A stretch of 64,000 nt of DNA from Puniceicoccales bacterium. Lineage in GTDB: Bacteria; Verrucomicrobiota; Verrucomicrobiia; Opitutales; UBA9783. Below, piece by piece: positions 8,734-39,565 of the stretch. The notes under the pieces were generated by a model that searched no databases, was not told where the DNA came from, and saw nothing but the letters and a program-made list of their open reading frames with translations. Position 1 is the stretch's first letter. Each line of letters begins with the position of its first letter. The DNA is taken from assembly GCA_031266455.1 (NCBI GenBank), contig JAISBA010000004.1, forward strand, positions 9,814-73,813. Direction: 5' to 3'. The position numbers and the translations under genes were made by a program.

Positions 8734-8819
8734 TGGTGCTCGGGACGGGACTTGAACCCGTACGACCTTACGGTCAGAGGATTTTAAGTCCTCAGCGTCT
8801 ACCATTCCGCCACCCAAGC
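8734..8819 (-). tRNA. tRNA-Leu (anticodon UAA), type II long variable arm, CCA encoded
   Basis: The reverse complement is GCTTGGGTGGCGGAATGGTAGACGCTGAGGACTTAAAATCCTCTGACCGTAAGGTCGTACGGGTTCAAGTCCCGTCCCGAGCACCA. The acceptor stem pairs GCTTGGG with CCCGAGC. The anticodon stem is GAGGA/TCCTC with loop CTTAAAA, and a GGTTCAAGTCC T-arm is present. Confidence 0.9.
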
Positions 8820-24424: not shown

Positions 24425-26959
24425 TCACATTTCAGAAGAAACCAACAGGGTATGAGAAAGATCCGATTGTAAATACACTTTGGATCGCTCAAAAAGTTCT
24501 TCTAAGGATACACTATCGATGGCTTTTGCATAATTCAACCAGGCATCTTGAGGTAAATCAAACAACTCATTGATGCCGGCGTAAAATGCCTTTTTGGCGA
24601 TTGTTTGCAAACGTGTTTGCTGGCTCACTTTAAGATGCGATCGACATAGGTCAAATTCTTTAGAAGATATCTGACGGTCCAAAACACGTTGCGTCGCTTT
24701 GAATATTTCTGCTTCAACTGTCTTCAAATGGGATGCCTGAGTACTTGCAAACAAACACAACATACCTCGATTTAATCCCGTTAAACGCGTGGCTCCAACC
24801 GTATAAGCCAAACCTAATTTCTCCCTGACTTCGATAACAAATTGGCTCGACAAGCCATTGAATAATTCTTCCAAATAGTCGGCCACATAATAGTCTTTTG
24901 AACCTATACCTGCCATTGGGTAAGCCTGGAAAACCATCGATTGCTCTTTGTTTAATTGGCATTCGCAGTACCGTTCGGAAGTAAAAAAGATTTCATCGGA
25001 CACTTTTTCAAAACAATTTTCCGAAATTCCATCACCGATGGGCTCCAATAATTTTATTAACTCATCCGTAGGCAGCGGACTGACCGCCGATATGACGCAA
25101 TTGGGGCCAACAAAAATTTTTCTAAAATAATGCCAACAGTGTTCCAATCGCAGCGCTTTTACGTCGTCCTCAATCCCATACTGACCTACGGCGTAGGGAT
25201 GTTGTCCAAAAAATTGATGACGCATTTTTTTAAATCCCACATAAAATACATCATCCATCATCTCCTGAATGGAAGCCAGTTGAGAAGCTTTTTCAATTTC
25301 AAATGTTTCCTCTTTAAATCGAGGCATACGCAGCGCTTCCCCCAATAAATGACATCCCATAGCCGTGTTTTGGGGTAAAGATTCAAAAGCCAATCCTATG
25401 TGATTAATCCCCGTAAAACTATTAAACTGGCCTCCTATGGCGTCAACGGCTTCCGCAATTTCACGTGCCGTATGCTTTTCGGTATCTTTCATCAACAAAG
25501 AAGCCACCAAATGCGAAATACCTCGTTGATGTTCCGGTTCGTACAAAGCCCCCCCCAAACTGAGTACCTGCACGTGCGTTTTTGGGAAAGATGGATTATA
25601 CTGCATCACCAAACGTACGCCATTGGGTAAGGTTATCGATTCCACAGGCTGCGTACGTATCTCCGTAGATTTTTTAAAAAAAACCTTTTCCAATGCTTTT
25701 GGCTCCAAAGATACTTTGGTGCAAGTTGCTGGCTTTAAATATTTGCTCACAATTGCCTTTACACTTTTTGCATCCAATTGTTTCAATTGTTCCAAATAGT
25801 GCTTCGAGTACTGCAGATCTCCCAGGCAGGTGTCAGCCCATCCTAAATGGTGAGCTTGCCCCGATACCGTTTTTTGAGTATCTATTTCCGATACAATTGC
25901 TTGCTTAAGCGCCTTCTGCACGTGCTTTGTTTCAATAGCTGCTTCCGCCATACACTGCAAATTTTTCGATAAAAATTCCTCCACGCAAGCACGTTTTTCT
26001 CCATCACATACGTACTGTATCCAAAATAATCCTTGATCAGCCATCCAGGTGGATACATCGATGGAATAAACGTATCTTAACTCTTCTCTCAATTTTTGAT
26101 ACAGCAGCGAGCTGTCACCGCAACCCAGTACATTGGATAAAACTTGTAACTTAGCTCCATCCTTGTGACCCAACCCTGGAATTTTAAATGCCAACACTCC
26201 ACGTACCAATTGGTAGTCTCCATAAAAACGTTCCACCCTTTCCGCCATTTGGAAAGGTTCTCGAGTAATTAAAACCGGTTGCAAACTTTTTGGCAAACAG
26301 GTGGAAAAATAATGATTCACCCTTTCTTGAATCCATTCAAACGACAAATTACCCACAATAACCAACGTCATGTTATTGATGGGATAGCGCTTACGCCAGT
26401 ATTCAACCAAATCTTCACGCGTCAATTGTTCAAAAATACTTTTAATGCCGATGATGGGGAATCGATAGGGATGCTTACGAAATGCGTTTTCAAATACCAC
26501 TTGATTGAGTCGATCCTCCGGATCATCGTTGCACATGTCGATCTCACGCAAAATCACCTTTTTTTCCTTAAGCATTTCTTCGGATGGAAATGTGGGATGC
26601 AACAGCATATCGCTTAAAATATCCAAACCCAATTCCGCAGATTCCGATGAACCATCGTAAGTATAAACGGTTCTATCAAACGACGTGTAGGCATTGAGAC
26701 TGGCTCCCGAGGCTTGTGCTTCCGAAAAGATATCCGCGTACGTACGCCGCTCCGTCCCTTTAAAAACCATATGTTCCACAAAATGAGAAATACCCGCACC
26801 CAAATATTTGTCTTCGTGAATACTGCCTGTTTTTACCCACGCTTGAATTGCAACCAAACCGGTGTGATCAACGGGTAAAAAAATGACCTTGAGTCCATTG
26901 GAAAGTGCAAAGCAACACGGATGATAGATCAAAAATTCTTCAAATGAACACATATCCAA
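24425..26959 (-). CDS. M16-family zinc peptidase, double (fused active + inactive M16 halves)
   Basis: HxxEH zinc motif in ISHFVEHMVFKGT, then EREVILREI-like KEKKVILREI. A second half has a degenerate site (ISHLVASLLMKDT). The track start is TTG at 26959, and ATG at 26953 is an alternative. Confidence 0.8.
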   Translation of the reverse strand: MDMCSFEEFLIYHPCCFALSNGLKVIFLPVDHTGLVAIQAWVKTGSIHEDKYLGAGISHFVEHMVFKGTERRTYADIFSEAQASGASLNAYTSFDRTVYTYDGSSESAELGLDILSDMLLHPTFPSEEMLKEKKVILREIDMCNDDPEDRLNQVVFENAFRKHPYRFPIIGIKSIFEQLTREDLVEYWRKRYPINNMTLVIVGNLSFEWIQERVNHYFSTCLPKSLQPVLITREPFQMAERVERFYGDYQLVRGVLAFKIPGLGHKDGAKLQVLSNVLGCGDSSLLYQKLREELRYVYSIDVSTWMADQGLFWIQYVCDGEKRACVEEFLSKNLQCMAEAAIETKHVQKALKQAIVSEIDTQKTVSGQAHHLGWADTCLGDLQYSKHYLEQLKQLDAKSVKAIVSKYLKPATCTKVSLEPKALEKVFFKKSTEIRTQPVESITLPNGVRLVMQYNPSFPKTHVQVLSLGGALYEPEHQRGISHLVASLLMKDTEKHTAREIAEAVDAIGGQFNSFTGINHIGLAFESLPQNTAMGCHLLGEALRMPRFKEETFEIEKASQLASIQEMMDDVFYVGFKKMRHQFFGQHPYAVGQYGIEDDVKALRLEHCWHYFRKIFVGPNCVISAVSPLPTDELIKLLEPIGDGISENCFEKVSDEIFFTSERYCECQLNKEQSMVFQAYPMAGIGSKDYYVADYLEELFNGLSSQFVIEVREKLGLAYTVGATRLTGLNRGMLCLFASTQASHLKTVEAEIFKATQRVLDRQISSKEFDLCRSHLKVSQQTRLQTIAKKAFYAGINELFDLPQDAWLNYAKAIDSVSLEELFERSKVYLQSDLSHTLLVSSEM

Positions 26960-27019
26960 CTTATTTCATTGTCTCAAAAAAAGCCACTCCTGTAAAGTTG
27001 AAAACCTCCTTTTATAATT

Positions 27020-27073: not shown

Positions 27074-27493
27074 TTACCTATTCGGGCAATCCGGCGTGTG
27101 CACCATTCCTTGTCCTGTGAATATCATTGGACAATGTGGACAATGGTGACTGCGATCAGGATCATTCGGGCAATTTGGACCATGACCTCTTGACATAGGA
27201 ACATGACAATACGGACAATCACGATCAGGATCATTCAGGCAATCCGGCATATGGTTTCCTTCTATCATACCACAATGTGGGCACATCGCATGAGGATCAT
27301 TCGGACAACCCGGCATATGATTTCCCATTGACATGGGAACGTGGCAATGTGGACACATCGCATAAGGATTTTGAGGGCAATCCCATTCATCGTGCCCTTC
27401 TTGACCACAATGCGGACATACTACAGCCAGTCCCGGTAATGTCGCCATTAATTTAAATGCAATTAAACAAAGATATTTTTTCATGCAGTTCAT
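27074..27493 (-). CDS. Cys/His-rich tandem CX2C...H...C (zinc-knuckle-like) protein with putative signal peptide, 5 units
   Basis: The 139-aa ORF starts MNCMKKYLCLIAFKLMATLPGLAVV. Five units follow: CPHCGQEGHDEWDC (exact CX2CX4HX4C), CPHCHVPMSMGNHMPGC, CPHCGMIEGNHMPDC, CPYCHVPMSRGHGPNC, CPHCPMIFTGQGMVHTPDC. It ends in CPNR. Two paralogues lie at 33.6 and 34.1 kb. Its own terminator and a conserved upstream region support a real gene. The start is ATG 27493 or ATG 27484 (MKKYL). Confidence 0.7.
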   Translation of the reverse strand: MNCMKKYLCLIAFKLMATLPGLAVVCPHCGQEGHDEWDCPQNPYAMCPHCHVPMSMGNHMPGCPNDPHAMCPHCGMIEGNHMPDCLNDPDRDCPYCHVPMSRGHGPNCPNDPDRSHHCPHCPMIFTGQGMVHTPDCPNR

Positions 27494-31003: not shown

Positions 31004-33414
31004 ACAGCCTGCTTTCTTATTTGATAGGTATAATCTTTTTCCAAACAGCCCTGCAATTTTTCAAAAACATCGTTCACTTGCTCATCCGTCAGGGTTCCCA
31101 TATGTGAATCAAATACGAGTGAAAATGCAAGACTTTTTTTCTTACTATGTGTCGTATCATAGAAAACGTCAAAAATGTTTACACATTTCAATTGCATCGG
31201 ATGTTGCATGATTTTTCGAACCGATTTTTCAATATTTTGGCGCACCGCCTCAGCCAATGTATCCGCGTCTACCAACAGAGCTAAGTCCTTACGCACAGCG
31301 GGGTATTCCGAATAGATCTGAAACCATTTGTGATCTTTTATGTGTAGTTTGTCAGGCATCCAACAACATTCGCCCGCCAAAACAACCGCTTCTTTAAACC
31401 ATCGACGCGTAAAATTTAAATTCACGTATCCAAAATTGGCTTCAAAGCCGCGCTGTTCCCATGCACCTACGTTTCCGGCGTAATCTTTCTGCCACAAGGC
31501 ATCCACCTGTTTTGTAGTACTTTGCATTACTTCGTTCGTCCCCCCACAAGCCACCATCATCGAACGCACCCATGCCTGCGCATCGTAAAAGTCAAATGAA
31601 GGGACTTCCTTCCACCGTTTAACGTCGGCCGGACATACCACGAACGCACTCGCAAACAACTCGCATAATTGGCCATCCTTTTGAACTCGGAATATGCGGC
31701 CCGATTCAAATAAACGTTCCACATCGTTGCCGTGGTGTCTGTTATCGCACAAAGCATTCAACAGTCCCGGAATGAGAGAAAAACGTAAACATGCATGCTC
31801 AGCACTTAACGGATTGAATACCTTCAATGCTTCTTTCGGTATTAAATTTTCGCCCAAAGAAGCCGGTTGCAAACTATCCGTGTAGCATTCTAAAAATCCG
31901 TGTGCGGATAAAAGTTGCGCGTGTCTCTTTTTCAAGAGATATGTATTTGAAGTACTCAGGCAACATGCGGGACCTTCAGGCATTTTAGAAGGGATAGAGT
32001 CGGTTCCAAACAAACGCAGAAACTCTTCAACCAAATCCACTCCCTGCGCAACATCGGCCCGATGGGTAGGGATTGCTACTTCCCAATGTTCATTGTCACA
32101 AGGTACAACCTCAAAACCTAATTTTTTTAGGGTGTCGACAAAAAATTTCGGATCCACATGAAAACCTAACAATCTTTCCACCTGAGAAAATTCAAATTTT
32201 ACTTTACGCAACGAAACGGCATCGGATCCCGCAACCACACACTGCTCGCATACAATTTTATCGTCCATGGATAACAATAATTGGACGGCCCTGCACAAAG
32301 CTTCTCGCGCATGCGTTTTATCCACGTAGCGTTCAAAGCGGTAGGAGCTATCTGAACTTAAATCCAATTTGCGAGAGGACATGCGTATACTATCCGCTTG
32401 AAAATGAGCACTTTCCAAAAAAACAGTCGTTGTGGTTGTTTTAATTTCACTTTCCTCACCTCCCATAATACCCGCAATCGCTAATGGCTTATCGCGGTCT
32501 GCAACAAGTAAAGTATTTTCCGGCAAAGACCTCGTAACTCCATCCAACGTTCTAATACATTCTCCCATACGCGCACCCCGTACACAAATACGATCCCCGC
32601 GTATGAGATCCCAATCAAAAGCGTGTAACGGTTGACCTCTTTCCAAGAGTACAAAATTGGTCACATCGACCACGTTATTAACGGGACGTAAGCCCACCGA
32701 TTGCAGTGTATTTTTCAACCAATCCGGACTAGGCCCTACGTGCACGTTTTTCAAAAGGCAACCCGCATAATAATCGCATCCATCCGAATTGAGTTCCACC
32801 GATATATTTTTTATGGGAGGCAAATCCAGCAAACATTCGGGATAAATAATGGGTAAATCCAGCGCAGCACTCAATTCTCTCGCTATTCCCAAATAACTTA
32901 AACAATCCCCACGATTTGAGGTAATGGATAGATCCATAACCGTATCGCTTTGATCCACAAAAAGCTTTGCCAAAGGCTCTCCCACATTTGGATGCAAGTC
33001 ATTGAGAATGTACAAACCTGCACTCTCCTTACCCAACCCCAATTCGTTGGCACTGCACATCATACCGCAAGATTCAACATCTCGTATGCGTGTCTTTTTT
33101 AAAAGGGTCTCTCCCAATTGCGCACCCGGTAAAGCAACGGGGACCACATCTCCTTCTTTAAAATTTGTCGCTCCGCAAACAATTTGCAACGAACGATTTC
33201 GCCCAATATCTACCTCACAAACACTTAGTCGATCGGCATGGGGATGTTTTTCCTTTTTTAGAACACGACCTACAACCAAATCACCCTTGCCGCAATATCC
33301 AATCGCCTCCACATTTTCTACTTCGAAACCCAGTCCTATCAAGATTTCGCACAATTCCATCGAAGACTGCTTAAAATGGACATACCATCTTAAGGTATTT
33401 AAAGCGATTTTCAT
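31000..33414 (-). CDS. pheT: Phenylalanine--tRNA ligase beta subunit
   Basis: 804 aa. It has an N-terminal tRNA-binding (EMAP/OB) domain with VVGRVLKKEKHPHADRLSVCEVDIG, B3/4 and B5 regions, and a C-terminal FDX-ACB-like domain. No pheS is adjacent. Confidence 0.9.
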   Translation of the reverse strand: MKIALNTLRWYVHFKQSSMELCEILIGLGFEVENVEAIGYCGKGDLVVGRVLKKEKHPHADRLSVCEVDIGRNRSLQIVCGATNFKEGDVVPVALPGAQLGETLLKKTRIRDVESCGMMCSANELGLGKESAGLYILNDLHPNVGEPLAKLFVDQSDTVMDLSITSNRGDCLSYLGIARELSAALDLPIIYPECLLDLPPIKNISVELNSDGCDYYAGCLLKNVHVGPSPDWLKNTLQSVGLRPVNNVVDVTNFVLLERGQPLHAFDWDLIRGDRICVRGARMGECIRTLDGVTRSLPENTLLVADRDKPLAIAGIMGGEESEIKTTTTTVFLESAHFQADSIRMSSRKLDLSSDSSYRFERYVDKTHAREALCRAVQLLLSMDDKIVCEQCVVAGSDAVSLRKVKFEFSQVERLLGFHVDPKFFVDTLKKLGFEVVPCDNEHWEVAIPTHRADVAQGVDLVEEFLRLFGTDSIPSKMPEGPACCLSTSNTYLLKKRHAQLLSAHGFLECYTDSLQPASLGENLIPKEALKVFNPLSAEHACLRFSLIPGLLNALCDNRHHGNDVERLFESGRIFRVQKDGQLCELFASAFVVCPADVKRWKEVPSFDFYDAQAWVRSMMVACGGTNEVMQSTTKQVDALWQKDYAGNVGAWEQRGFEANFGYVNLNFTRRWFKEAVVLAGECCWMPDKLHIKDHKWFQIYSEYPAVRKDLALLVDADTLAEAVRQNIEKSVRKIMQHPMQLKCVNIFDVFYDTTHSKKKSLAFSLVFDSHMGTLTDEQVNDVFEKLQGCLEKDYTYQIRKQAV

Positions 33415-33422
33415 GCCTCGAA

Positions 33423-33451
33423 AGTAAAATCTTTGAGAACAATTTTGTCAA
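33423..33451 (-). promoter_or_regulatory. Candidate sigma70-type promoter for pheT-gatCAB (TTGACA-N17-TTTACT)
   Basis: The minus strand reads cgcgTTGACAaaattgttctcaaagatTTTACTttcgaggcATG. The -35 is a perfect consensus and belongs to repeat U. The -10 is weak (4/6) and lies only 8 nt from the ATG, implying a near-leaderless mRNA. Sequence-pattern call only. Confidence 0.3.
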
Positions 33452-33494
33452 CGCGAATTTAAATTGTAAACTATTCGAAAATTTCCTAATCAAC
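33445..33494 (-). repeat. Repeat 'U' copy 1 (50 bp); other copies at 33843-33894 and 35675-35726
   Basis: Copy 1 is ttgtcaacgcgaatttaaattgtaaactattcgaaaatttcctaatcaac. Copy 3 is ttgtcaacgcgaatttaaatcgtaaactattcgaaaatttcccaatcaac. Copy 2 is ttgtcaacgtgaatttaaatcgcaaaccactcgaaagttttccaatcaat. Confidence 0.85.
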
Positions 33495-33533
33495 TAAAAA
33501 ACACTCCTGTACAGTTGAAAACCTCTCTATAAT

Positions 33534-33567
33534 TCAAAAAACAAACCCTACAAAAGATGTAGGGTTT
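33534..33567 (-). terminator. Rho-independent terminator downstream of the frameshifted Cys/His-rich paralogue
   Basis: The minus strand reads AAACCCTACA-TCTTT-TGTAGGGTTT followed by GTTTTTT. It is the homologue of the 27020-27053 hairpin, with a compensated stem change (G:C to A:T). Confidence 0.7.
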
Positions 33568-33589
33568 ATAAATCTTGTAAGCCTTCACA

Positions 33590-33776
33590 TTACCTATTCG
33601 GGCAACCAGGCCTATGATGTCCTCCACGTTCACCACACTGTGAGCACATACGATCAGGACAAATTGCTTTCATTATGCCCATCGTGACCACAATAGGGAC
33701 ATGTCATAGCCATTCCTGGCAGTGTCGCCATTAATTTAAATGCAACTAAATAAAGATATTTTTTCATATGGCTCAT
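33590..33776 (-). pseudogene. Frameshifted two-unit paralogue of the Cys/His-rich zinc-knuckle-like family
   Basis: My translation gives (MSH)MKKYLYLVAFKLMATLPGMAMTCPYCGHDGHNESNLS* and then, in another frame, CPDRMCSQCGERGGHHRPGCPNR*. Removing one T from the run at 33661-33663 (gene strand AATTTG) restores CPYCGHDGHNESNC, an exact CX2CX4HX4C unit, and one continuous ORF. The length is not a multiple of 3. Confidence 0.7.
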
Positions 33777-33819
33777 TCTGTTAATCTTTTTAATATTAGC
33801 AAGCTTTCTATTAATCTTT

Positions 33820-33849
33820 TTTATAGATTACTTTTTACTTACTTGTCAA
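33820..33849 (-). promoter_or_regulatory. Candidate promoter TTGACA-N18-TATAAA of the frameshifted paralogue
   Basis: On the minus strand, TTGACA is at 33849..33844 and TATAAA at 33825..33820. The spacing and boxes are the same as the 35652-35681 copy. Confidence 0.45.
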
Positions 33850-33894
33850 CGTGAATTTAAATCGCAAACCACTCGAAAGTTTTCCAATCAATTT

Positions 33895-33954
33895 CTACCA
33901 ACGAATACGAACACATCCATTCTGACCCACTAAACGTTCTTGCGTCTTGTAATC
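33895..33954 (-). pseudogene. 60-bp fossil copy of the 3' end of the 35727-37625 gene
   Basis: The reverse complement translates to DYKTQERLVGQNGCVRIRW*. The intact gene ends DYKTQERLAGQNGCVRIRW*. It directly follows repeat U copy 2, as in the intact locus. Confidence 0.85.
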
Positions 33955-34040
33955 AATTGGGAAAAATGACCTAGTCCACTGGAAAATGTAAAACAATACG
34001 GGTTATAGGTCAAAAATTCTTCAAACGAACATACGTCCAA
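33951..34040 (-). pseudogene. About 90-bp fossil copy of the 5' end of the M16 peptidase gene (source 26868-26959)
   Basis: The reverse complement TTGGACGTATGTTCGTTTGAAGAATTTTTGACCTATAACCCGTATTGTTTTACATTTTCCAGTGGACT... matches M16 TTGGATATGTGTTCATTTGAAGAATTTTTGATCTATCATCCGTGTTGCTTTGCACTTTCCAATGGACT... The ATG is lost (ATATGT to GTATGT) and there are indels further in. Confidence 0.8.
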
Positions 34041-34112
34041 CTTGTTTTATTGTCTCAAAAAAACCAGTACTGTACAGCTAAAAACCTCCTTTTATAAATT
34101 TTGTAAGCCTTA

Positions 34113-34511
34113 TTACCTATTCGGACACCTAGGCTTATGGTTTCCTCCAAATTTACCACACTGCGGACACTTCGAATTCGGGTGAGTACAATCTCTTGCA
34201 TTATGGTTTCCTTCACAATATGGACATGTATAGCGAGAACACCTAGGCTTATGGTTTCCTCCAAATTTACCACACTGCGGACACATCGAATTTAGATGAA
34301 TACAAGCTCTTGCATCATGGATTTTTCCACAATATGAACATGTAAAGCGAGGACACCTAGGCATATGGTTTCCTCCAAGTTTACCACACTGCGGACACTT
34401 TGAATTCGGATGGACACAAAATTCTGCAGCATGTGTTCCTCCACAATATGGACATGTATAGCGAGAACACCTAGGCTTATGGTTTCCTCCAAATTCAAAA
34501 CACTCTGGACA
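34113..34511 (-). repeat. Intragenic tandem repeat, 114-bp (38-aa) period, about 3.5 copies
   Basis: The protein units are CPECFEFGGNHKPRCSRYTCPYCGGTHAAEFCVHPNSK, CPQCGKLGGNHMPRCPRFTCSYCGKIHDARACIHLNSM, CPQCGKFGGNHKPRCSRYTCPYCEGNHNARDCTHPNSK and CPQCGKFGGNHKPRCPNR*. The DNA motif acacctaggcttatggtttcctccaaatttaccacactgcggaca recurs every 114 bp. Confidence 0.9.
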
Positions 34512-35546
34512 CATCGAATGGACGCAAACTCCCGCAGCATGCCTTTCTTGATCACAATATGGGCATATATAATGAGGACAACAGGGCATATGTCCAACTT
34601 CACCGCACTGCGGACACATGTAGCCCGGACTATTTGGACAATCCGGCCTATGGTTTCTTCCAAATTCACCACACTGCCGACACTTACTTATTGGACAATC
34701 GAACACATGAAATCCTGCCATGGGCCTAAGGCAATGCGGACACATGGGCTCACCGTAGTATGGGTAAATCGGACACCCGCGCACATGAGGTCCTGTCATG
34801 AGAACACGACAATGCGGACATATGGACACCTTGTCGTGTAGGCAGCTCGGACACCCGGATGCATGAGGTCCTGCCATGGGAATATGACAACTCGAACACA
34901 TGGACACATTGTAGTATGGGCAATCGGGCGTATGAGGTCCTGTCATGGGCTCAAGGCAATGCGGACATTCGCGATTAGGATCATTCGGACAATCCGGTAT
35001 ATGTCTTTCCGATATGGGAACATGACAACGCCGACACATGAGCACATTGTAGTATGGGCAATCGAGCGCATGAGGTCCTGTCATGGGCTCAAGACAATGC
35101 GGACATTTGCGATTAGGATCATTCGGGCAATCCGGTATATGACTTCCCAATATAGGAATATTACACTGCTGGCATATCGGATTAGGATAATCAGGACAAT
35201 CTCTTACATTATGAATTTCTCCACAATGTGAACATGTACAGTCAGGACAAGCAGGCCAATGGTTTCCTCCAGATCTACCACAGTACGAACATCTTGAACA
35301 AGTATTCATTCTTTCATGATCTTTCGGATATTCATAGGAAAGATAATCGGACCTATGGCTTTTATAGGAAAGACAATTGAAACTATAGCTTTCTTTATGG
35401 CCACCACAGTGCGAACATCTTGCATTTGGATGGGCACAATCCCTTGCCTCATGCCCTCTTTGACCACAATACGGACACGCATAGTTAGGACAACAGTGCT
35501 TATGGTTAGGTACACATTCACCACAATGCGGACATACTTCAGCCAT
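34113..35546 (-). CDS. Giant Cys/His-rich array of about 24 CX2C...H...C zinc-knuckle-like units (477 aa); leader start codons lost, possibly decaying or cytoplasmic
   Basis: The intact 477-codon ORF has 72 Cys by my hand count. It includes exact CX2CX4HX4C units (CPYCGQRGHEARDC), CX2CX6HX3C units (CPQCGKFGGNHKPRC) and CX2CX7HX3C units (CPHCLEPMTGPHALDC). It ends in CPNR like both paralogues. The region homologous to the signal peptide is in frame upstream but both ATGs are ATA. Confidence 0.6.
   Translation of the reverse strand: MAEVCPHCGECVPNHKHCCPNYACPYCGQRGHEARDCAHPNARCSHCGGHKESYSFNCLSYKSHRSDYLSYEYPKDHERMNTCSRCSYCGRSGGNHWPACPDCTCSHCGEIHNVRDCPDYPNPICQQCNIPILGSHIPDCPNDPNRKCPHCLEPMTGPHALDCPYYNVLMCRRCHVPISERHIPDCPNDPNRECPHCLEPMTGPHTPDCPYYNVSMCSSCHIPMAGPHASGCPSCLHDKVSICPHCRVLMTGPHVRGCPIYPYYGEPMCPHCLRPMAGFHVFDCPISKCRQCGEFGRNHRPDCPNSPGYMCPQCGEVGHMPCCPHYICPYCDQERHAAGVCVHSMCPECFEFGGNHKPRCSRYTCPYCGGTHAAEFCVHPNSKCPQCGKLGGNHMPRCPRFTCSYCGKIHDARACIHLNSMCPQCGKFGGNHKPRCSRYTCPYCEGNHNARDCTHPNSKCPQCGKFGGNHKPRCPNR
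34899..35174 (-). repeat. Intragenic tandem repeat, 138-bp (46-aa) period, 2 copies
   Basis: CQQCNIPILGSHIPDCPNDPNRKCPHCLEPMTGPHALDCPYYNVLM is followed by CRRCHVPISERHIPDCPNDPNRECPHCLEPMTGPHTPDCPYYNVSM. The C..CHVP.S..H.P.CPNDP signature is shared with the 139-aa paralogue. Confidence 0.9.
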
Positions 35547-35651
35547 TCCTGGCAGTGTCGCTATTAATTCAAATGCAACTAAATAAAGATACCTTTTTAT
35601 GCCGTCTATTTTGTTAGCTTTTCTAATATTAGTAAGCTTTTTGTTAATCTT

Positions 35652-35681
35652 TTTATAAATTATTTTTTACTTATTTGTCAA
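35652..35681 (-). promoter_or_regulatory. Candidate promoter TTGACA-N18-TATAAA upstream of the 477-aa Cys/His-rich gene
   Basis: The minus strand reads cgcgTTGACAaataagtaaaaaataattTATAAAaag. The -35 is at 35681..35676 and the -10 at 35657..35652. It is conserved in the 33.8-kb copy. Confidence 0.45.
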
Positions 35682-35726
35682 CGCGAATTTAAATCGTAAA
35701 CTATTCGAAAATTTCCCAATCAACTT

Positions 35727-37625
35727 CTACCAACGAATACGAACACATCCATTCTGACCCGCTAAACGCTCTTGCGTCTTGTAATCCTTTTGTCCATTAC
35801 CTCCATTTCCAAATTGACCTAACATAGCAACCTGCTGCCCGGCATAATGACTCTCACTACCCCTTGTTGCCGGTACACCCATAGCTCCTCCATCACAACG
35901 AATTTCCAAAGAATGAACGTGGACCGTAGTTGCCTCACCTGCAGCTAGCTCTGAGGCTTGCCCGACATGGATGGAAACAATACCTCCACTTTGTACACCC
36001 TCGATTTTCTCCATTCTAAAAGTACCCGAACCTCCACCGTTTCCACTGATGCTAAAATCCGTCAAATATTGTACATCGAGATAGATTCTCATATTTTTTT
36101 GCGATTTTGTCCTCGCATCCATCTTTGACATCCAACTGTTCTCATTTACTTGATTCTCTGTAACGTTATGAGAAAAAGAAACACCGTAAGAATAGACGTA
36201 GTCTTTCTGTTTTCTGTCATTGTATATCATGTTTAATACAAAATTTCTAGTTTCCTTATCTTTAAGTTCCACGCATTGATTAAATCGAGGTAGGTTATGA
36301 GGGTTATCAGTTCTATAGACCAAAAATTCATTACTTGTTGCTGGAAACCTACTCATACGGCCGGTAACATTGGTGATGCGCGCTGGACCTGTCACATATA
36401 TAGGTGTTTTAGACCATATCCATCCTCTCCATGAATGATATTCTAAATTTAAATCACTCGTCTGTTCCACTGGGGTCCCCCAATCCCGATATTGTAAAGC
36501 AGGACTACCGCTTCCGCCTGCACCGATCGCTTCAATCGTAATGGTATGCACGCCTTCCGGAATCGCCCAAAAGTATTTCCCGGGCTGATCAAAAACAACT
36601 TGCCCATGATTTTGTTCGACAACAATATCGGTTGCTTCACAAACATCCTCCTCCATTGATATTTTAAGATCTTCCAACAAATGATCGTACGCTTCACTAC
36701 ATTTGTGCAATTTTTCTAGTTCACACGCAACATTTTGCTCGCGCATGGAAACGTACAACCAAAGTGTAAAAAAAGAATCTACATCGATGCAAAAATGCTT
36801 GTCTTTACAATTACACCACGTGACGTGTGGAGAGAACAAATTTAAATAAGGTTCGCAAAGGGGGTCCAAACGTTGCATTAATTTAACAACGTTACTCGCA
36901 ACATCATCAAATTCGGATAACCGCCTAAAGGCATCCCATGCAATATGACTTATCTTAAGTTTAGCTGAAAACTTGCAAGGGATGAGGATAAAAGTAGAAG
37001 ACTTACACATCAAAGGAAAAGACCAGGTATCGGTTGGGTGCAAAGATAAATCACCGCATTTATCCATAAGCAGATCATTAAAAAAATGCGCCGTGTAGTT
37101 CAGAACATTTAGGAAATCAGCTGCGGATAATAATGAAAGCGCTTCCATTAAGTGCTGTCGATGCGCCCGTATCGGTTCAATAAAATACTGATTCCAAATA
37201 TCGTGCACATTTTGGATATCTTTTTGCGTAATATCCAATGGAAGCCCTACTAAACAATCTTCGTTATCCTGATAGGCATAATGTTGTAACACGCAGTCAG
37301 GTTGCTTTATCAGATGTGGTAATGTGTGCTGAAAATAGGGATATCCCCATACATAATTGGCAATGCTACCACACACCCAATAACTCCCAAACTGAACGGC
37401 AAATGGGGGCGGAGATTTGTATTTTCGGTACAAATTCAGAACGTTCGGCAATTCTTCTGCGGAAAAAGACTTTCTACAAAAAATTTCTGCAGGAATGTAT
37501 AAAAAACCTTTATCTTTTTGATTATTTGAATCTTTTAAAACAAAAGTCGGACAATGGGGAAATGCAAACAGCATTTCGGTAGCCAAACACAAAGCTACAG
37601 TAAAACATTTACTGTACTTAAACAT
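35727..37625 (-). CDS. Hypothetical exported protein; unknown N-terminal about 340 aa plus C-terminal region with GAGGSGS / GNGGGSG / GNGGNG glycine clusters
   Basis: 632 aa. The N-terminus MFKYSKCFTVALCLATEMLFAF is hydrophobic and leader-like. The C-terminal part contains GKYFWAIPEGVHTITIEAIGAGGSGS, FSISGNGGGSGTF and GQFGNGGNGQ, and ends GQNGCVRIRW. This pattern is reminiscent of glycine-rich beta domains of phage, viral or surface fibre proteins. I recognised no catalytic motif. Confidence 0.6.
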   Translation of the reverse strand: MFKYSKCFTVALCLATEMLFAFPHCPTFVLKDSNNQKDKGFLYIPAEIFCRKSFSAEELPNVLNLYRKYKSPPPFAVQFGSYWVCGSIANYVWGYPYFQHTLPHLIKQPDCVLQHYAYQDNEDCLVGLPLDITQKDIQNVHDIWNQYFIEPIRAHRQHLMEALSLLSAADFLNVLNYTAHFFNDLLMDKCGDLSLHPTDTWSFPLMCKSSTFILIPCKFSAKLKISHIAWDAFRRLSEFDDVASNVVKLMQRLDPLCEPYLNLFSPHVTWCNCKDKHFCIDVDSFFTLWLYVSMREQNVACELEKLHKCSEAYDHLLEDLKISMEEDVCEATDIVVEQNHGQVVFDQPGKYFWAIPEGVHTITIEAIGAGGSGSPALQYRDWGTPVEQTSDLNLEYHSWRGWIWSKTPIYVTGPARITNVTGRMSRFPATSNEFLVYRTDNPHNLPRFNQCVELKDKETRNFVLNMIYNDRKQKDYVYSYGVSFSHNVTENQVNENSWMSKMDARTKSQKNMRIYLDVQYLTDFSISGNGGGSGTFRMEKIEGVQSGGIVSIHVGQASELAAGEATTVHVHSLEIRCDGGAMGVPATRGSESHYAGQQVAMLGQFGNGGNGQKDYKTQERLAGQNGCVRIRW

Positions 37626-38315
37626 GCAGAGCTATCATTTTTTAACAAAAAACTTTTTGTCAACTCCTAAAGTTATTAAAAATATTTCAAAAGATAGCTT
37701 TGCCATCGATATTGGTGCACACACAGGAGATACAACCGTTCCTATGGCTATTGCCACTGGATATTAATACTCGGGCTAGAACCCAATCCATACGTTTTTA
37801 AAATTTTGGAACGTAATTCACAACTCAATAAAAATCTTGCGCAGATCATTCCACTGTGCTCTGCTGCCACTTTAGAAAACGGGACATTTGAATTTAACTA
37901 CTCCGATGCGTCTTTTTGTAATGGAGGATTTTTATCTAAAATTCAGACAAAATCCCATCATCATTCTCATAAATTAACGGTAAAAGGCATAAATCTTTCA
38001 ACTTATTTAAATGAAAATATGAAAGCGTACTTACCAAAGTTAAATTTCGTTAAAGTCGATACGGAAGGATACGACAAAGATGTCTTATTGAGTTTAACCC
38101 ATATTATAAAAAGCTATCGTCCCATTATTATGGCAGAGTGTTACAAACGTTTAACAAAAGAAGAACGTTTCTCACTATTTAACATTTTTGAAGATTTTGG
38201 TTCTTACAAACTATTCAAATTAGATGACAATGGTCACGTTTCAACCATTCACATTCCGTCGGGGGAAATGATGCTGAGTGAACCACATTTCAATTTTATC
38301 GCTCTACCCGAGTGA
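37624..38315 (+). pseudogene. FkbM-family methyltransferase, frameshifted (two reading frames)
   Basis: Frame A from ATG 37624 reads MQSYHFLTKNFLSTPKVIKNISKDSFAIDIGAHTGDTTVPMAIATGY* with a stop at 37765. Frame B, open from 37698, reads ...ILILGLEPNPYVFKILERNSQLN...VKVDTEGYDKDVLLSL... The motifs DIGAxxGdtt, EPnP and K.D.EG.E...L are the FkbM methyltransferase pattern. The shift lies near 37759-37765. Confidence 0.7.
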
Positions 38316-39337: not shown

Positions 39338-39565
39338 CTAGAAACTTAGCGACGTATTTCTTGTGGAACACTTACGGCAACATTGTTCTTCACAATTATC
39401 CACGTTAAAGTATATTTCGCCACAGTGCTTGCAATAAAAAACATGGCGCAACTTCAATGGGGCATAATCCTTTAGAACGCGTCTTTCAAAACCTGTTTGC
39501 CAAACAACAAATAGAATGATCGTTGCACAATAGAAAAGACTTAAGCAATACTCTAAAGATCCCAT
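39338..39565 (-). CDS. Small hypothetical membrane-anchored zinc-ribbon protein
   Basis: 75 aa with one hydrophobic helix (CLSLFYCATIILFVVW), then CKHC...x18...CRKC. It is wedged 7 nt upstream of kdsD on the same strand, downstream of rplQ. Confidence 0.4.
   Translation of the reverse strand: MGSLEYCLSLFYCATIILFVVWQTGFERRVLKDYAPLKLRHVFYCKHCGEIYFNVDNCEEQCCRKCSTRNTSLSF

Follow-up and report, generated by a model that had tools for sequence, protein, structure and literature searches.

The locus considered here raises the question of what a gene encodes when one half of its product has no detectable relative beyond six closely related genomes, and the other half resembles the glycine-rich domains of phage fibers. 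It lies on a contig of a Puniceicoccales bacterium (JAISBA010000004.1), of which a stretch of 64,000 nucleotides was analyzed (hereafter the window). On the minus strand of the window, at 35727..37625, an open reading frame (ORF) encodes a protein of 632 amino acids (aa) with the N-terminus MFKYSKCFTVALCLATEMLFAF; a preliminary description of this DNA had given the same coordinates and length. The identical protein is present in the databases as a hypothetical protein of a Puniceicoccales (Verrucomicrobiota) metagenome-assembled genome (MAG), with the locus tag LBJ78_00795. The evidence presented below suggests that it is a lineage-restricted two-part protein which is probably exported, with binding or adhesion as its most likely role; the novelty is that a variant of a known glycine-rich domain is carried on an orphan protein.

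A Conserved Gene at a Fixed Chromosomal Position

35727..37625, minus strand: complete gene, 632 codons and stop, hypothetical protein of a Puniceicoccales MAG

The ORF is real rather than a chance reading frame, given that the ratio of nonsynonymous to synonymous substitution rates (dN/dS) is 0.13–0.18 across six orthologues: it is a gene held by purifying selection at a fixed chromosomal site in six related genomes. Beyond the window, orthologous loci were found in L001, L002 (identical with L003), L004 (identical with L009), L007, and L008. All of them have kpsF on one side, in some cases along with a divergent FkbM methyltransferase gene, and pheT on the other, and the order kpsF–(FkbM)–gene–pheT is common to the six Puniceicoccales genomes. 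The MAG series concerned may stem from termite guts.

For the full-length protein, only these close orthologues were found. Pfam and NCBIfam returned nothing for the whole protein except a sub-threshold match to the Gly_rich_2 family, and a PADLOC scan gave no match. The PDB sequence set, compared with the single protein and with profiles of its C-terminal and N-terminal domains, contained no meaningful match, and none was found in metagenome contigs scanned by DNA pattern and by protein. The GC content at third codon positions (GC3) resembles that of the neighboring genes, and there is therefore no sign of recent import.

A Split Glycine-Rich Domain Forms the C-Terminal Half

36504..36605, minus strand: first piece of the glycine-rich domain, residues 341–374, beta strands and G-A-G-G-S-G, Gly_rich_2 model positions 3–29, predicted local distance difference test (pLDDT) >90
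36057..36503, minus strand: insert of ~150 aa, residues 375–523, beta-rich and partly of low confidence (alignment A2)
35730..36056, minus strand: second piece of the glycine-rich domain, residues 524–632, G-N-G-G-G-S-G, more Gly clusters and the terminal G-x-x-G-C-V-R-I-R-W, pLDDT 82–96

The preliminary description had recognized in the C-terminal region a glycine-rich beta domain of the kind found in phage and giant-virus fibers, split into two pieces with about 150 aa between them. The split is evident from the residue positions, as PGKYFWAIPEGVHTITIEAIGAGGSGS occupies residues 348–374 and FSISGNGGGSG begins at about residue 524, leaving a gap of ~150 aa. An exhaustive phmmer search over 1.84 billion cluster representatives with a cut-off of E ≤ 1e-3 returned 18 proteins, and the matches are confined to residues ~311–632, save for the orthologue P0002 and for P0018, whose match is repetitive and probably spurious. 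The best match, P0004 (E 1.9e-25 over residues 339–631), itself passes Gly_rich_2 (PF21722) with 32.4 bits, the Pfam gathering threshold being 24.3 bits; P0006 follows with an E-value of 9.1e-12. Gly_rich_2 is present in most of the matches that were scanned, in several of them above the curated threshold, and one remote relative, P0010, has the ALK/LTK glycine-rich domain PF12810 instead.

Alignment A2 comprises 11 members of the C-terminal domain, namely the 632-aa protein and its ten nearest relatives, and all 11 match Gly_rich_2 at E ≤ 0.1 (best E 2.7e-8). Comparison of this alignment with uninterrupted Gly_rich_2 domains by hhalign gave a probability of 97.5% with an E-value of 7.5e-12. 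The signature motifs of the family are present: an opening strand with W-x-[IV]-P-x-G-V, G-G-G-S-G, later G-x-G-G clusters, and a terminal G-x-x-G-x-V-x-I-x-[YW]. Invariant in A2 are G15, W19, P22, G24, G36, G37, G197, G200, G272, G274, G275, G289, and G292. The terminal strand, which had been picked out earlier as G-x-x-G-x-V-x-I-x-W, is thus conserved across the relatives, with G289 and G292 invariant and V294 and I296 nearly so. A contiguous domain of ~226 positions, as in the family model, was not found; model positions 3–29 correspond to residues 348–374 and the rest follows after residue ~524. In P0004, model positions 33–137 fall on residues 324–409. Among the PHROGs, the match is to the first motif only (phrog_4474, E 7.8e-6). 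The literature searched contained no mention of PF21722.

An AlphaFold model calculated on A2 has a mean pLDDT of 74, with both glycine-rich pieces above 90. The structural search proposed in the preliminary description was made with this model of the C-terminal half, and Foldseek returned the cyanophage Pam3 fiber (7ypx_A) as the top match in the PDB with a probability of 0.97, followed by the Bxb1 tail tip and, lower, by entries of the ALK glycine-rich domain. Against the viral models of BFVD there were 20 matches at E ≤ 1e-3, which include mycobacteriophage minor tail proteins, a giant-virus collagen-like protein, and proteins annotated as "glycine-rich domain-containing." The proposed kinship with phage and giant-virus fiber domains is supported by these structural matches together with the family membership of A2. 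We conclude that the C-terminal half (residues ~341–632) is supported as a member of the Gly_rich_2 class, with a probable fold of TNF-like beta-sandwich plus glycine-rich lattice as in phage fibers and ALK; judged from the sequences, its homology to Gly_rich_2 is transitive and significant.

The Insert Is Shared with Pilin-Type Relatives

The interruption of the domain by a large insert, suggested in the preliminary description, was confirmed, but it is not peculiar to this protein and is conserved in the whole subfamily (A2). Uninterrupted domains such as that of P0009 have ~12 aa between G-A-G-G-G-G-G and the next G-A-G-G-N-G block, whereas the 632-aa protein and its ten nearest relatives have 100–170 residues at the insert point. 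Within the insert, W-G-x-P, G-P-x-[KR]-[VL], and a W are conserved in A2; the motifs W-G-x-P, G-P-A-[RK]-[IV]-T-N-V, and W are common to the 632-aa protein and the pilin-type relatives, and the insert of P0005 also has G-P-A-R-V-T-N-V-T-G. An insert of ~150 aa after the first strand and G-x-G-G-S-G evidently defines a subfamily.

The nearest relatives carry the same split module at the C-terminus and a prepilin-type cleavage/methylation motif (PF07963) at the front, where P0012 passes TIGR02532 (21.0 vs. 16.3 bits). The prepilin motif is followed by a conserved linker (alignment A4). P0012 and P0019, the two relatives with readable loci, are encoded at the end of clusters with a secretin, a GspE/PilB-like ATPase, a GspF/PilC-like platform protein, and several small pilins. 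With such a front and such clusters of type IV filament genes, the relatives look like large "modular" minor pilins that may carry the split glycine-rich module as cargo.

Two contigs give an extended view of this setting. In L005 (1–16602) and L006 (1–11488), pilin-type relatives come last in a long cluster of a secretin, a GspE/PilB-like ATPase, pilins, a GspF/PilC-like protein, and ~8 small unassigned ORFs. Next to come in L005 are a ClpB-like AAA protein, a TraG/VirD4-type coupling protein, and a RES-domain protein, an arrangement that suggests a mobile element with its own type IV filament. A tblastn search of P0012 against plasmids gave no match.

An Orphan Cysteine-Rich Domain behind a Hydrophobic N-Terminus

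37560..37625, minus strand: residues 1–22, probable Sec signal peptide or N-terminal membrane anchor, from hydropathy, with a Lys-containing N-region and then a hydrophobic stretch
36606..37559, minus strand: residues 23–340, orphan domain rich in Cys, His, and aromatic residues, with 11 invariant Cys and no homologue outside six genomes

The N-terminal half had been described as rich in Cys and aromatic residues and devoid of any recognizable motif, and this holds: residues 23–340 contain 4.7% Cys and 12.9% W+Y+F, and no relatives were found beyond the six closely related genomes in the exhaustive phmmer search. Neither did this part match a family or solved structure in Pfam, NCBIfam, PADLOC, or the PDB sequence set, the last also searched with a profile. 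An AlphaFold (AF2) model from a three-sequence alignment has a pLDDT of 29.7 and is unusable. Across the six orthologues, 11 Cys are invariant (25, 50, 85, 111, 124, 217, 257, 271, 273, 279, and 301), among them those of a W-C-N-C-K-D-K-H-F-C motif at residues 270–279. The invariant Cys suggest disulfides or metal binding, and this in turn would suggest an extracytoplasmic location.

The hydrophobic N-terminus that had been noted earlier consists of residues 7–22, the only hydrophobic stretch of the protein (15-mer Kyte-Doolittle mean 1.9). K3 and K6 precede this stretch of 15–16 hydrophobic residues, and residues 1–22 are identical in the six orthologues, residue 7 excepted. The segment is not a lipobox, given the Leu at −1 in V-A-L-C. 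In the relative P0013, the glycine-rich domain is immediately preceded by a hydrophobic leader of similar kind (KKYFAVALCVAATM...VCAA|MED), which is consistent with the leader being a Sec-type export signal.

No prepilin motif was found in the 632-aa protein by Pfam N_methyl (PF07963) or NCBIfam TIGR02532. The N-terminal sequence reads K-C-F-T-V-A-L (Y for C in the orthologues), without Gly at −1 and without Glu at +5. Comparison of the N-terminal half with the N-terminal regions of pilins by hhalign revealed no relation (probability 0.1%), and a likeness seen by eye between LNxAVDLYRSEFG and LPNVLNLYRKYKS was dropped on this account.

Purifying Selection and Recent Frameshifts

Window orthologue: intact, 632 aa, no lesion
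L007 orthologue: intact, 642 aa, no lesion
L008 orthologue: intact, 635 aa, no lesion
L004 orthologue: frameshifted at ~7840, 2-bp deletion in the G-A-G-G(-S-G) codons, codon 369
L002 orthologue: frameshifted at ~7920, 1-bp deletion, codon 397
L001 orthologue: frameshifted at ~11389, 1-bp deletion, codon 463

A single lesion is found in each frameshifted copy, which is otherwise free of stops, and the frameshifts of L001 and L002 are present in two assemblies each. Their clustering at codons 369–463 has a chance probability of ~0.06 in a simple range calculation and is not significant. A dN/dS of 0.13–0.18 was obtained in all 15 pairs of the six orthologues; it is equal for intact–intact pairs and for the part downstream of the lesions, and no higher in the frameshifted lineages. 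The neighboring genes have lower values (pheT 0.09–0.12, kpsF 0.05–0.07). The gene has hence been under purifying selection through most of the history of the clade, and its three inactivations arose independently and not long ago. A surface protein that is useful under some conditions accounts for this better than a gene long dead. A functional reading of the frameshifted genes as two-part proteins was rejected: the downstream pieces would have no export signal, and the gene callers simply took the in-frame Met424.

The divergent FkbM-family methyltransferase gene is the second gene that is decaying at the locus. In the window (37806–38315, plus strand) it is truncated to 169 aa and has a TTG start; elsewhere, L002 and L008 have it intact with 278 aa, L004 has a version of 220 aa, a frameshift disrupts it in L007, and it is deleted in L001.

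A Near-Invariant 5′ Region

37634..37663, minus strand: promoter-like site TTGACA-18-AATGAT, with TTGACA kept in all six orthologous loci
37505..37625, minus strand: codons 1–40, ultra-conserved nucleotides, including the perfect inverted repeat TACAGTAAA-nnn-TTTACTGTA at 37596–37616

Conservation at the start of the gene extends to the nucleotides. Codons 1–40 and ~60 nt upstream of them (37505–37685, minus strand) are near-invariant in the six loci, and 82% of the third codon positions in codons 1–40 are invariant, compared with 25–60% elsewhere. The promoter-like site would start a transcript ~2 nt ahead of the AUG, near 37627, giving a near-leaderless mRNA. A perfect 9-bp inverted repeat at codons 4–10 is unique in the window. 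The 5′ stretch folds better than shuffled controls (z = −2.82), and Alifold predicts three consensus hairpins, of which the first pairs the AUG; the hairpins show almost no variation and hence no covariation, and the few changes are in loops or G-U compatible. The region could be an RNA control element (switch) or an operator.

The Adjoining Cys/His Genes Are a Recent Insertion

35674..35725, minus strand: first part of the ancestral spacer between the gene and pheT, ending in GTTGACAAA, with the Cys/His cassette inserted right behind it (alignment with the L001, L007, and L008 spacers, repeat D9)
34113..35546, minus strand: 477-aa Cys/His repeat gene, a lineage-specific insertion that L001, L002, L004, L007, and L008 do not have at this position
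33973..34063, minus strand: duplicated 5′ end of the M16 peptidase gene (source 26892–26982), repeat D10, 85% identity, relic ORF MDVCSFEEFLTYNPYCF...
33895..33954, minus strand: relic of the last 60 bp of the 632-aa gene, repeat D8, relic ORF ending ...DYKTQERLVGQNGCVRIRW
33842–33893, minus strand: second spacer copy, after the 60-bp relic, repeat D9
33590..33776, minus strand: degenerate, frameshifted small Cys/His gene of the second tandem unit, repeat D2
33444..33495, minus strand: third spacer copy, running intact into the pheT start at 33414, repeat D9, 96% identity

In the window, the gene is separated from pheT by Cys/His genes, and the preliminary description had taken the two gene types for one compact co-oriented unit, possibly a co-secreted pair. 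The stretch at 33415–35726 is a mosaic of three spacer copies, two Cys/His cassettes, a duplicate of the M16 peptidase 5′ end, and a relic 3′ end of the 632-aa gene. The earlier statement that the last 60 bp and the 3′ flank were co-duplicated with the cassette is correct: 33818–33954 is a 91% copy of 35650–35786, a stretch that takes in the final 60 bp of the gene (repeat D8). The ancestral spacer, ...AATTCGCGTTGACAAA-GTTGCCC...ATG(pheT), is cut twice in the window directly behind GTTGACAAA, and its uncut continuation survives only before pheT at 33444–33495. One cassette has grown to 477 aa by internal repeats of 69, 114, and 138 bp; the other is frameshifted.

Synteny with the other five genomes, a test that the preliminary description had itself put forward, goes against a shared functional unit. 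There, pheT comes directly after the gene at a spacing of 73–84 bp, and none of the five has a Cys/His gene between the two. The only Cys/His gene seen in other genomes is a small one between gatB and the M16 peptidase gene, in L001 and L002, and the corresponding site of the window has a 139-aa Cys/His copy (27074..27493). A duplicate of the M16 peptidase 5′ end downstream of the 477-aa gene shows that the cassette came with its flank from the gatB/M16 site. It was copied from there into the ancestral spacer before pheT and then tandemly duplicated, with the final 60 bp of the 632-aa gene included. The mosaic is evidence of movement of the cassette within the genome along with its flanks.

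The promoter of the large paralogue had been said to abut the stop codon of the 632-aa gene. A TTGACA box does lie ~45 nt beyond this stop codon, but it derives from the ancestral spacer and not from the cassette, so that the supposed promoter is a hybrid of a −35-like box from the old spacer and a remainder from the upstream sequence of the cassette. In the 477-aa gene, the signal-peptide codons (…KRYLYLVAFELIATLPGMAEVCPHCG) are kept in frame at 35547–35620 (minus strand), and both ATGs are now ATA; the called ORF therefore begins after the signal peptide. This loss of start codons speaks against a co-secreted pair. Since the adjacency is confined to this genome and the cassette was inserted into an ancestral spacer, a functional pairing is not supported, and the closeness of the genes reflects an insertion and a tandem duplication that took place recently and in this genome only.

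Other Features of the Window

Between rplQ and kpsF, the window encodes a 75-aa ORF (39338–39565, minus strand) with a hydrophobic N-terminus and a C-x-x-C...C-C-x-x-C end; its weak Pfam matches are zinc-ribbon-like (E 0.01–0.03), and a 75-aa gene is called at the corresponding position of L004. From 24000 to 64000, the minus strand carries nearly all genes, among them those for the M16 peptidase, gatBAC, pheT, the ribosomal protein operons, and rpoBC, and there is a strongly negative GC skew. The only Rfam match in the window is a single tRNA (8737–8819, minus strand).

A Putative Exported Binding Protein and Its Alternatives

We propose that the protein would be exported by means of its N-terminal hydrophobic segment, that the Cys-rich N-terminal domain may form an extracytoplasmic stalk or anchor steadied by disulfides or metal, and that the split TNF-like/glycine-rich C-terminal module would bind a ligand on another surface, be it a host, a partner cell, or a polymer. 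Ligand binding is suggested by analogy, as the module does this in ALK and at phage fiber tips, and presumably also at type IV filament tips in the relatives. The gene most plausibly originated when the pilin module of a pilus-tip adhesin was swapped for the orphan domain, and it is probably dispensable under some conditions, given its recent inactivation in three of six lineages. A more far-reaching version would make the split module a new class of tip adhesins of type IV filaments, equivalent in bacteria to the ligand-binding domains of phage fibers and ALK, which this lineage detached from the pilus and fused to a new Cys-rich anchor for binding a host or partner; the hairpin 5′ region would control expression, and frameshifts would repeatedly switch the gene off when binding is disadvantageous. 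As a whole, this version strikes us as distinctly unlikely.

Several observations weigh against an exported binding protein. On its own, the 632-aa protein stays below the Gly_rich_2 threshold (12.9 bits at full length, 17.2 bits for the C-terminal half), and the Foldseek matches to solved structures are weak, with an E-value of 0.1 and template modeling (TM) scores of 0.33/0.39 for 7ypx_A. About a quarter of the C-terminal model has a pLDDT below 50, including the AF2 segments 89–115 and 133–176 in the insert. The split subfamily consists of nameless metagenomic proteins, no member of which has a demonstrated binding function. The hydrophobic stretch includes a Glu and has no clear A-x-A site, so that a cleaved signal is not separable from a membrane anchor; an inner-membrane anchor in a diderm cell would leave the protein facing the periplasm instead of the exterior. 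Finally, half of the orthologues are broken, and the function could be fading across the clade.

The last point leads to the possibility of a remnant gene that decays as the genome shrinks, and whose intact copy in the window is merely not yet broken and no longer functional. Frameshifts in three of six orthologues favor this, and the adjoining FkbM gene, decaying by truncation in the window, deletion in L001, frameshift in L007, and shortening in L004, is in keeping with it; yet the dN/dS is near that of pheT and the same in intact–intact pairs and downstream of the frameshifts, the broken copies have a single lesion each and no further stops, and the promoter and 5′ region are highly conserved. 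We regard decay as unlikely. That the protein is still a subunit of a pilus or pseudopilus, with a divergent class III (prepilin-like) signal by which it would be mounted on a type IV filament, could be argued from its N-terminal 40 residues, which are its most conserved part as in pilins, from the loose resemblance of K-[CY]-F-T-V-A-L to K-G-F-T-L-V-E, and from a C-terminal module in common with pilin-type proteins. The conservation, however, reaches synonymous sites and may not reflect the protein; Gly −1 and Glu +5 are both missing, N_methyl, TIGR02532, and the hhalign comparison with pilin N-regions (0.1%) all failed to find a pilin front, and no pilus genes lie within the window, which leaves this reading very unlikely.

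A leftover tail-fiber gene of a prophage or phage-derived particle would account for the best structural matches, which are phage fiber and minor tail proteins, and for the PHROG matches to the first motif. It is highly improbable all the same: the gene is fixed between kpsF and pheT in six genomes among housekeeping neighbors with no phage genes nearby, its GC3 is like that of the neighbors, its closest sequence relatives are pilin-type proteins in secretion/pilus clusters, and a tblastn search of the C-terminal domain against 50,697 phage records gave no match. To a partnership with the adjoining Cys/His proteins, whether as a surface fiber with a metal-binding partner or as a co-secreted pair, we give scarcely any credence. 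The genes are co-oriented and 180 bp apart, and the 3′ end of the 632-aa gene was co-duplicated with the cassette, but synteny largely refutes the partnership, as the adjacency is missing from all five other genomes; the cassette comes from the gatB/M16 site, as told by its M16 peptidase 5′ copy, and splits the ancestral spacer, the start codons of the signal peptide are gone from the 477-aa paralogue, and a frameshift disrupts the second copy.

If the proposal of an exported binding protein is true, bacteria also use the receptor-binding fold of phage fiber tips and ALK/LTK, which would be found as cargo of large pilin-like proteins in type IV filament clusters and, in the present lineage, on an exported protein independent of pili. 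It would provide a candidate adhesin in an uncultured, possibly host-associated group of Puniceicoccales, and the three intact and three frameshifted copies would be a natural set of on and off alleles for testing the ligand. The Cys/His cassettes next door, being mobile within the genome, are not to be read as partners of the gene.

Comparison with Known Systems

The protein shares with Gly_rich_2 (PF21722) the opening strand and W-x-V-P-x-G-V...G-G-G-G-S-G, the later G-x-G-G clusters, and the closing G-x-x-G-x-V-x-I-x-[YW]; it differs by the ~150 aa inserted between positions ~29 and ~33 of the model, compared with ~12 aa in uninterrupted domains. The glycine-rich module of phage fibers recognizes the host receptor, and phage-fiber domains are structurally akin to the ligand-binding domain of ALK and to the S16 gp38 adhesin (PMC9608196). 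Pam3 gp24 (PDB 7YPX) and gp38 of Salmonella phage S16 combine TNF-like or beta-helix domains with a polyglycine-rich tip that binds the receptor. In both, the glycine-rich module is C-terminal, as it is here, and comes after an alpha-helical N-terminal part, but there is no detectable sequence identity (10%), the TM-score is 0.33–0.39, and the present gene is not in a phage. No trimerization or chaperone partner is evident, and the N-terminal half is an unrelated Cys-rich domain of 320 aa.

With the glycine-rich domain of ALK/LTK (PF12810; 7LIR, 7LRZ, and 7NX4) the protein has the broad fold class in common; these structures are among the Foldseek matches, and the relative P0010 matches PF12810. 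The Foldseek probability is only 0.04–0.16, however, the 632-aa protein itself has no PF12810 match, and ALK and LTK are receptor kinases of eukaryotes.

Among the modular or minor type IV pilins that have their adhesive module at the C-terminus are PilB/PilC of S. sanguinis, PilV of R64, and TcpB/CofB. This type is represented here by P0004, P0005, P0008, P0011, P0012, P0017, P0019, P0020, and P0024, which share with the 632-aa protein the split glycine-rich C-terminal module at 22–47% identity and motifs of the insert such as G-P-A-[RK]-V-T-N-V. Unlike them, the 632-aa protein has neither a prepilin motif nor a pilin linker, and within the window its gene lies between kpsF/FkbM and pheT rather than in a pilus or secretion cluster.

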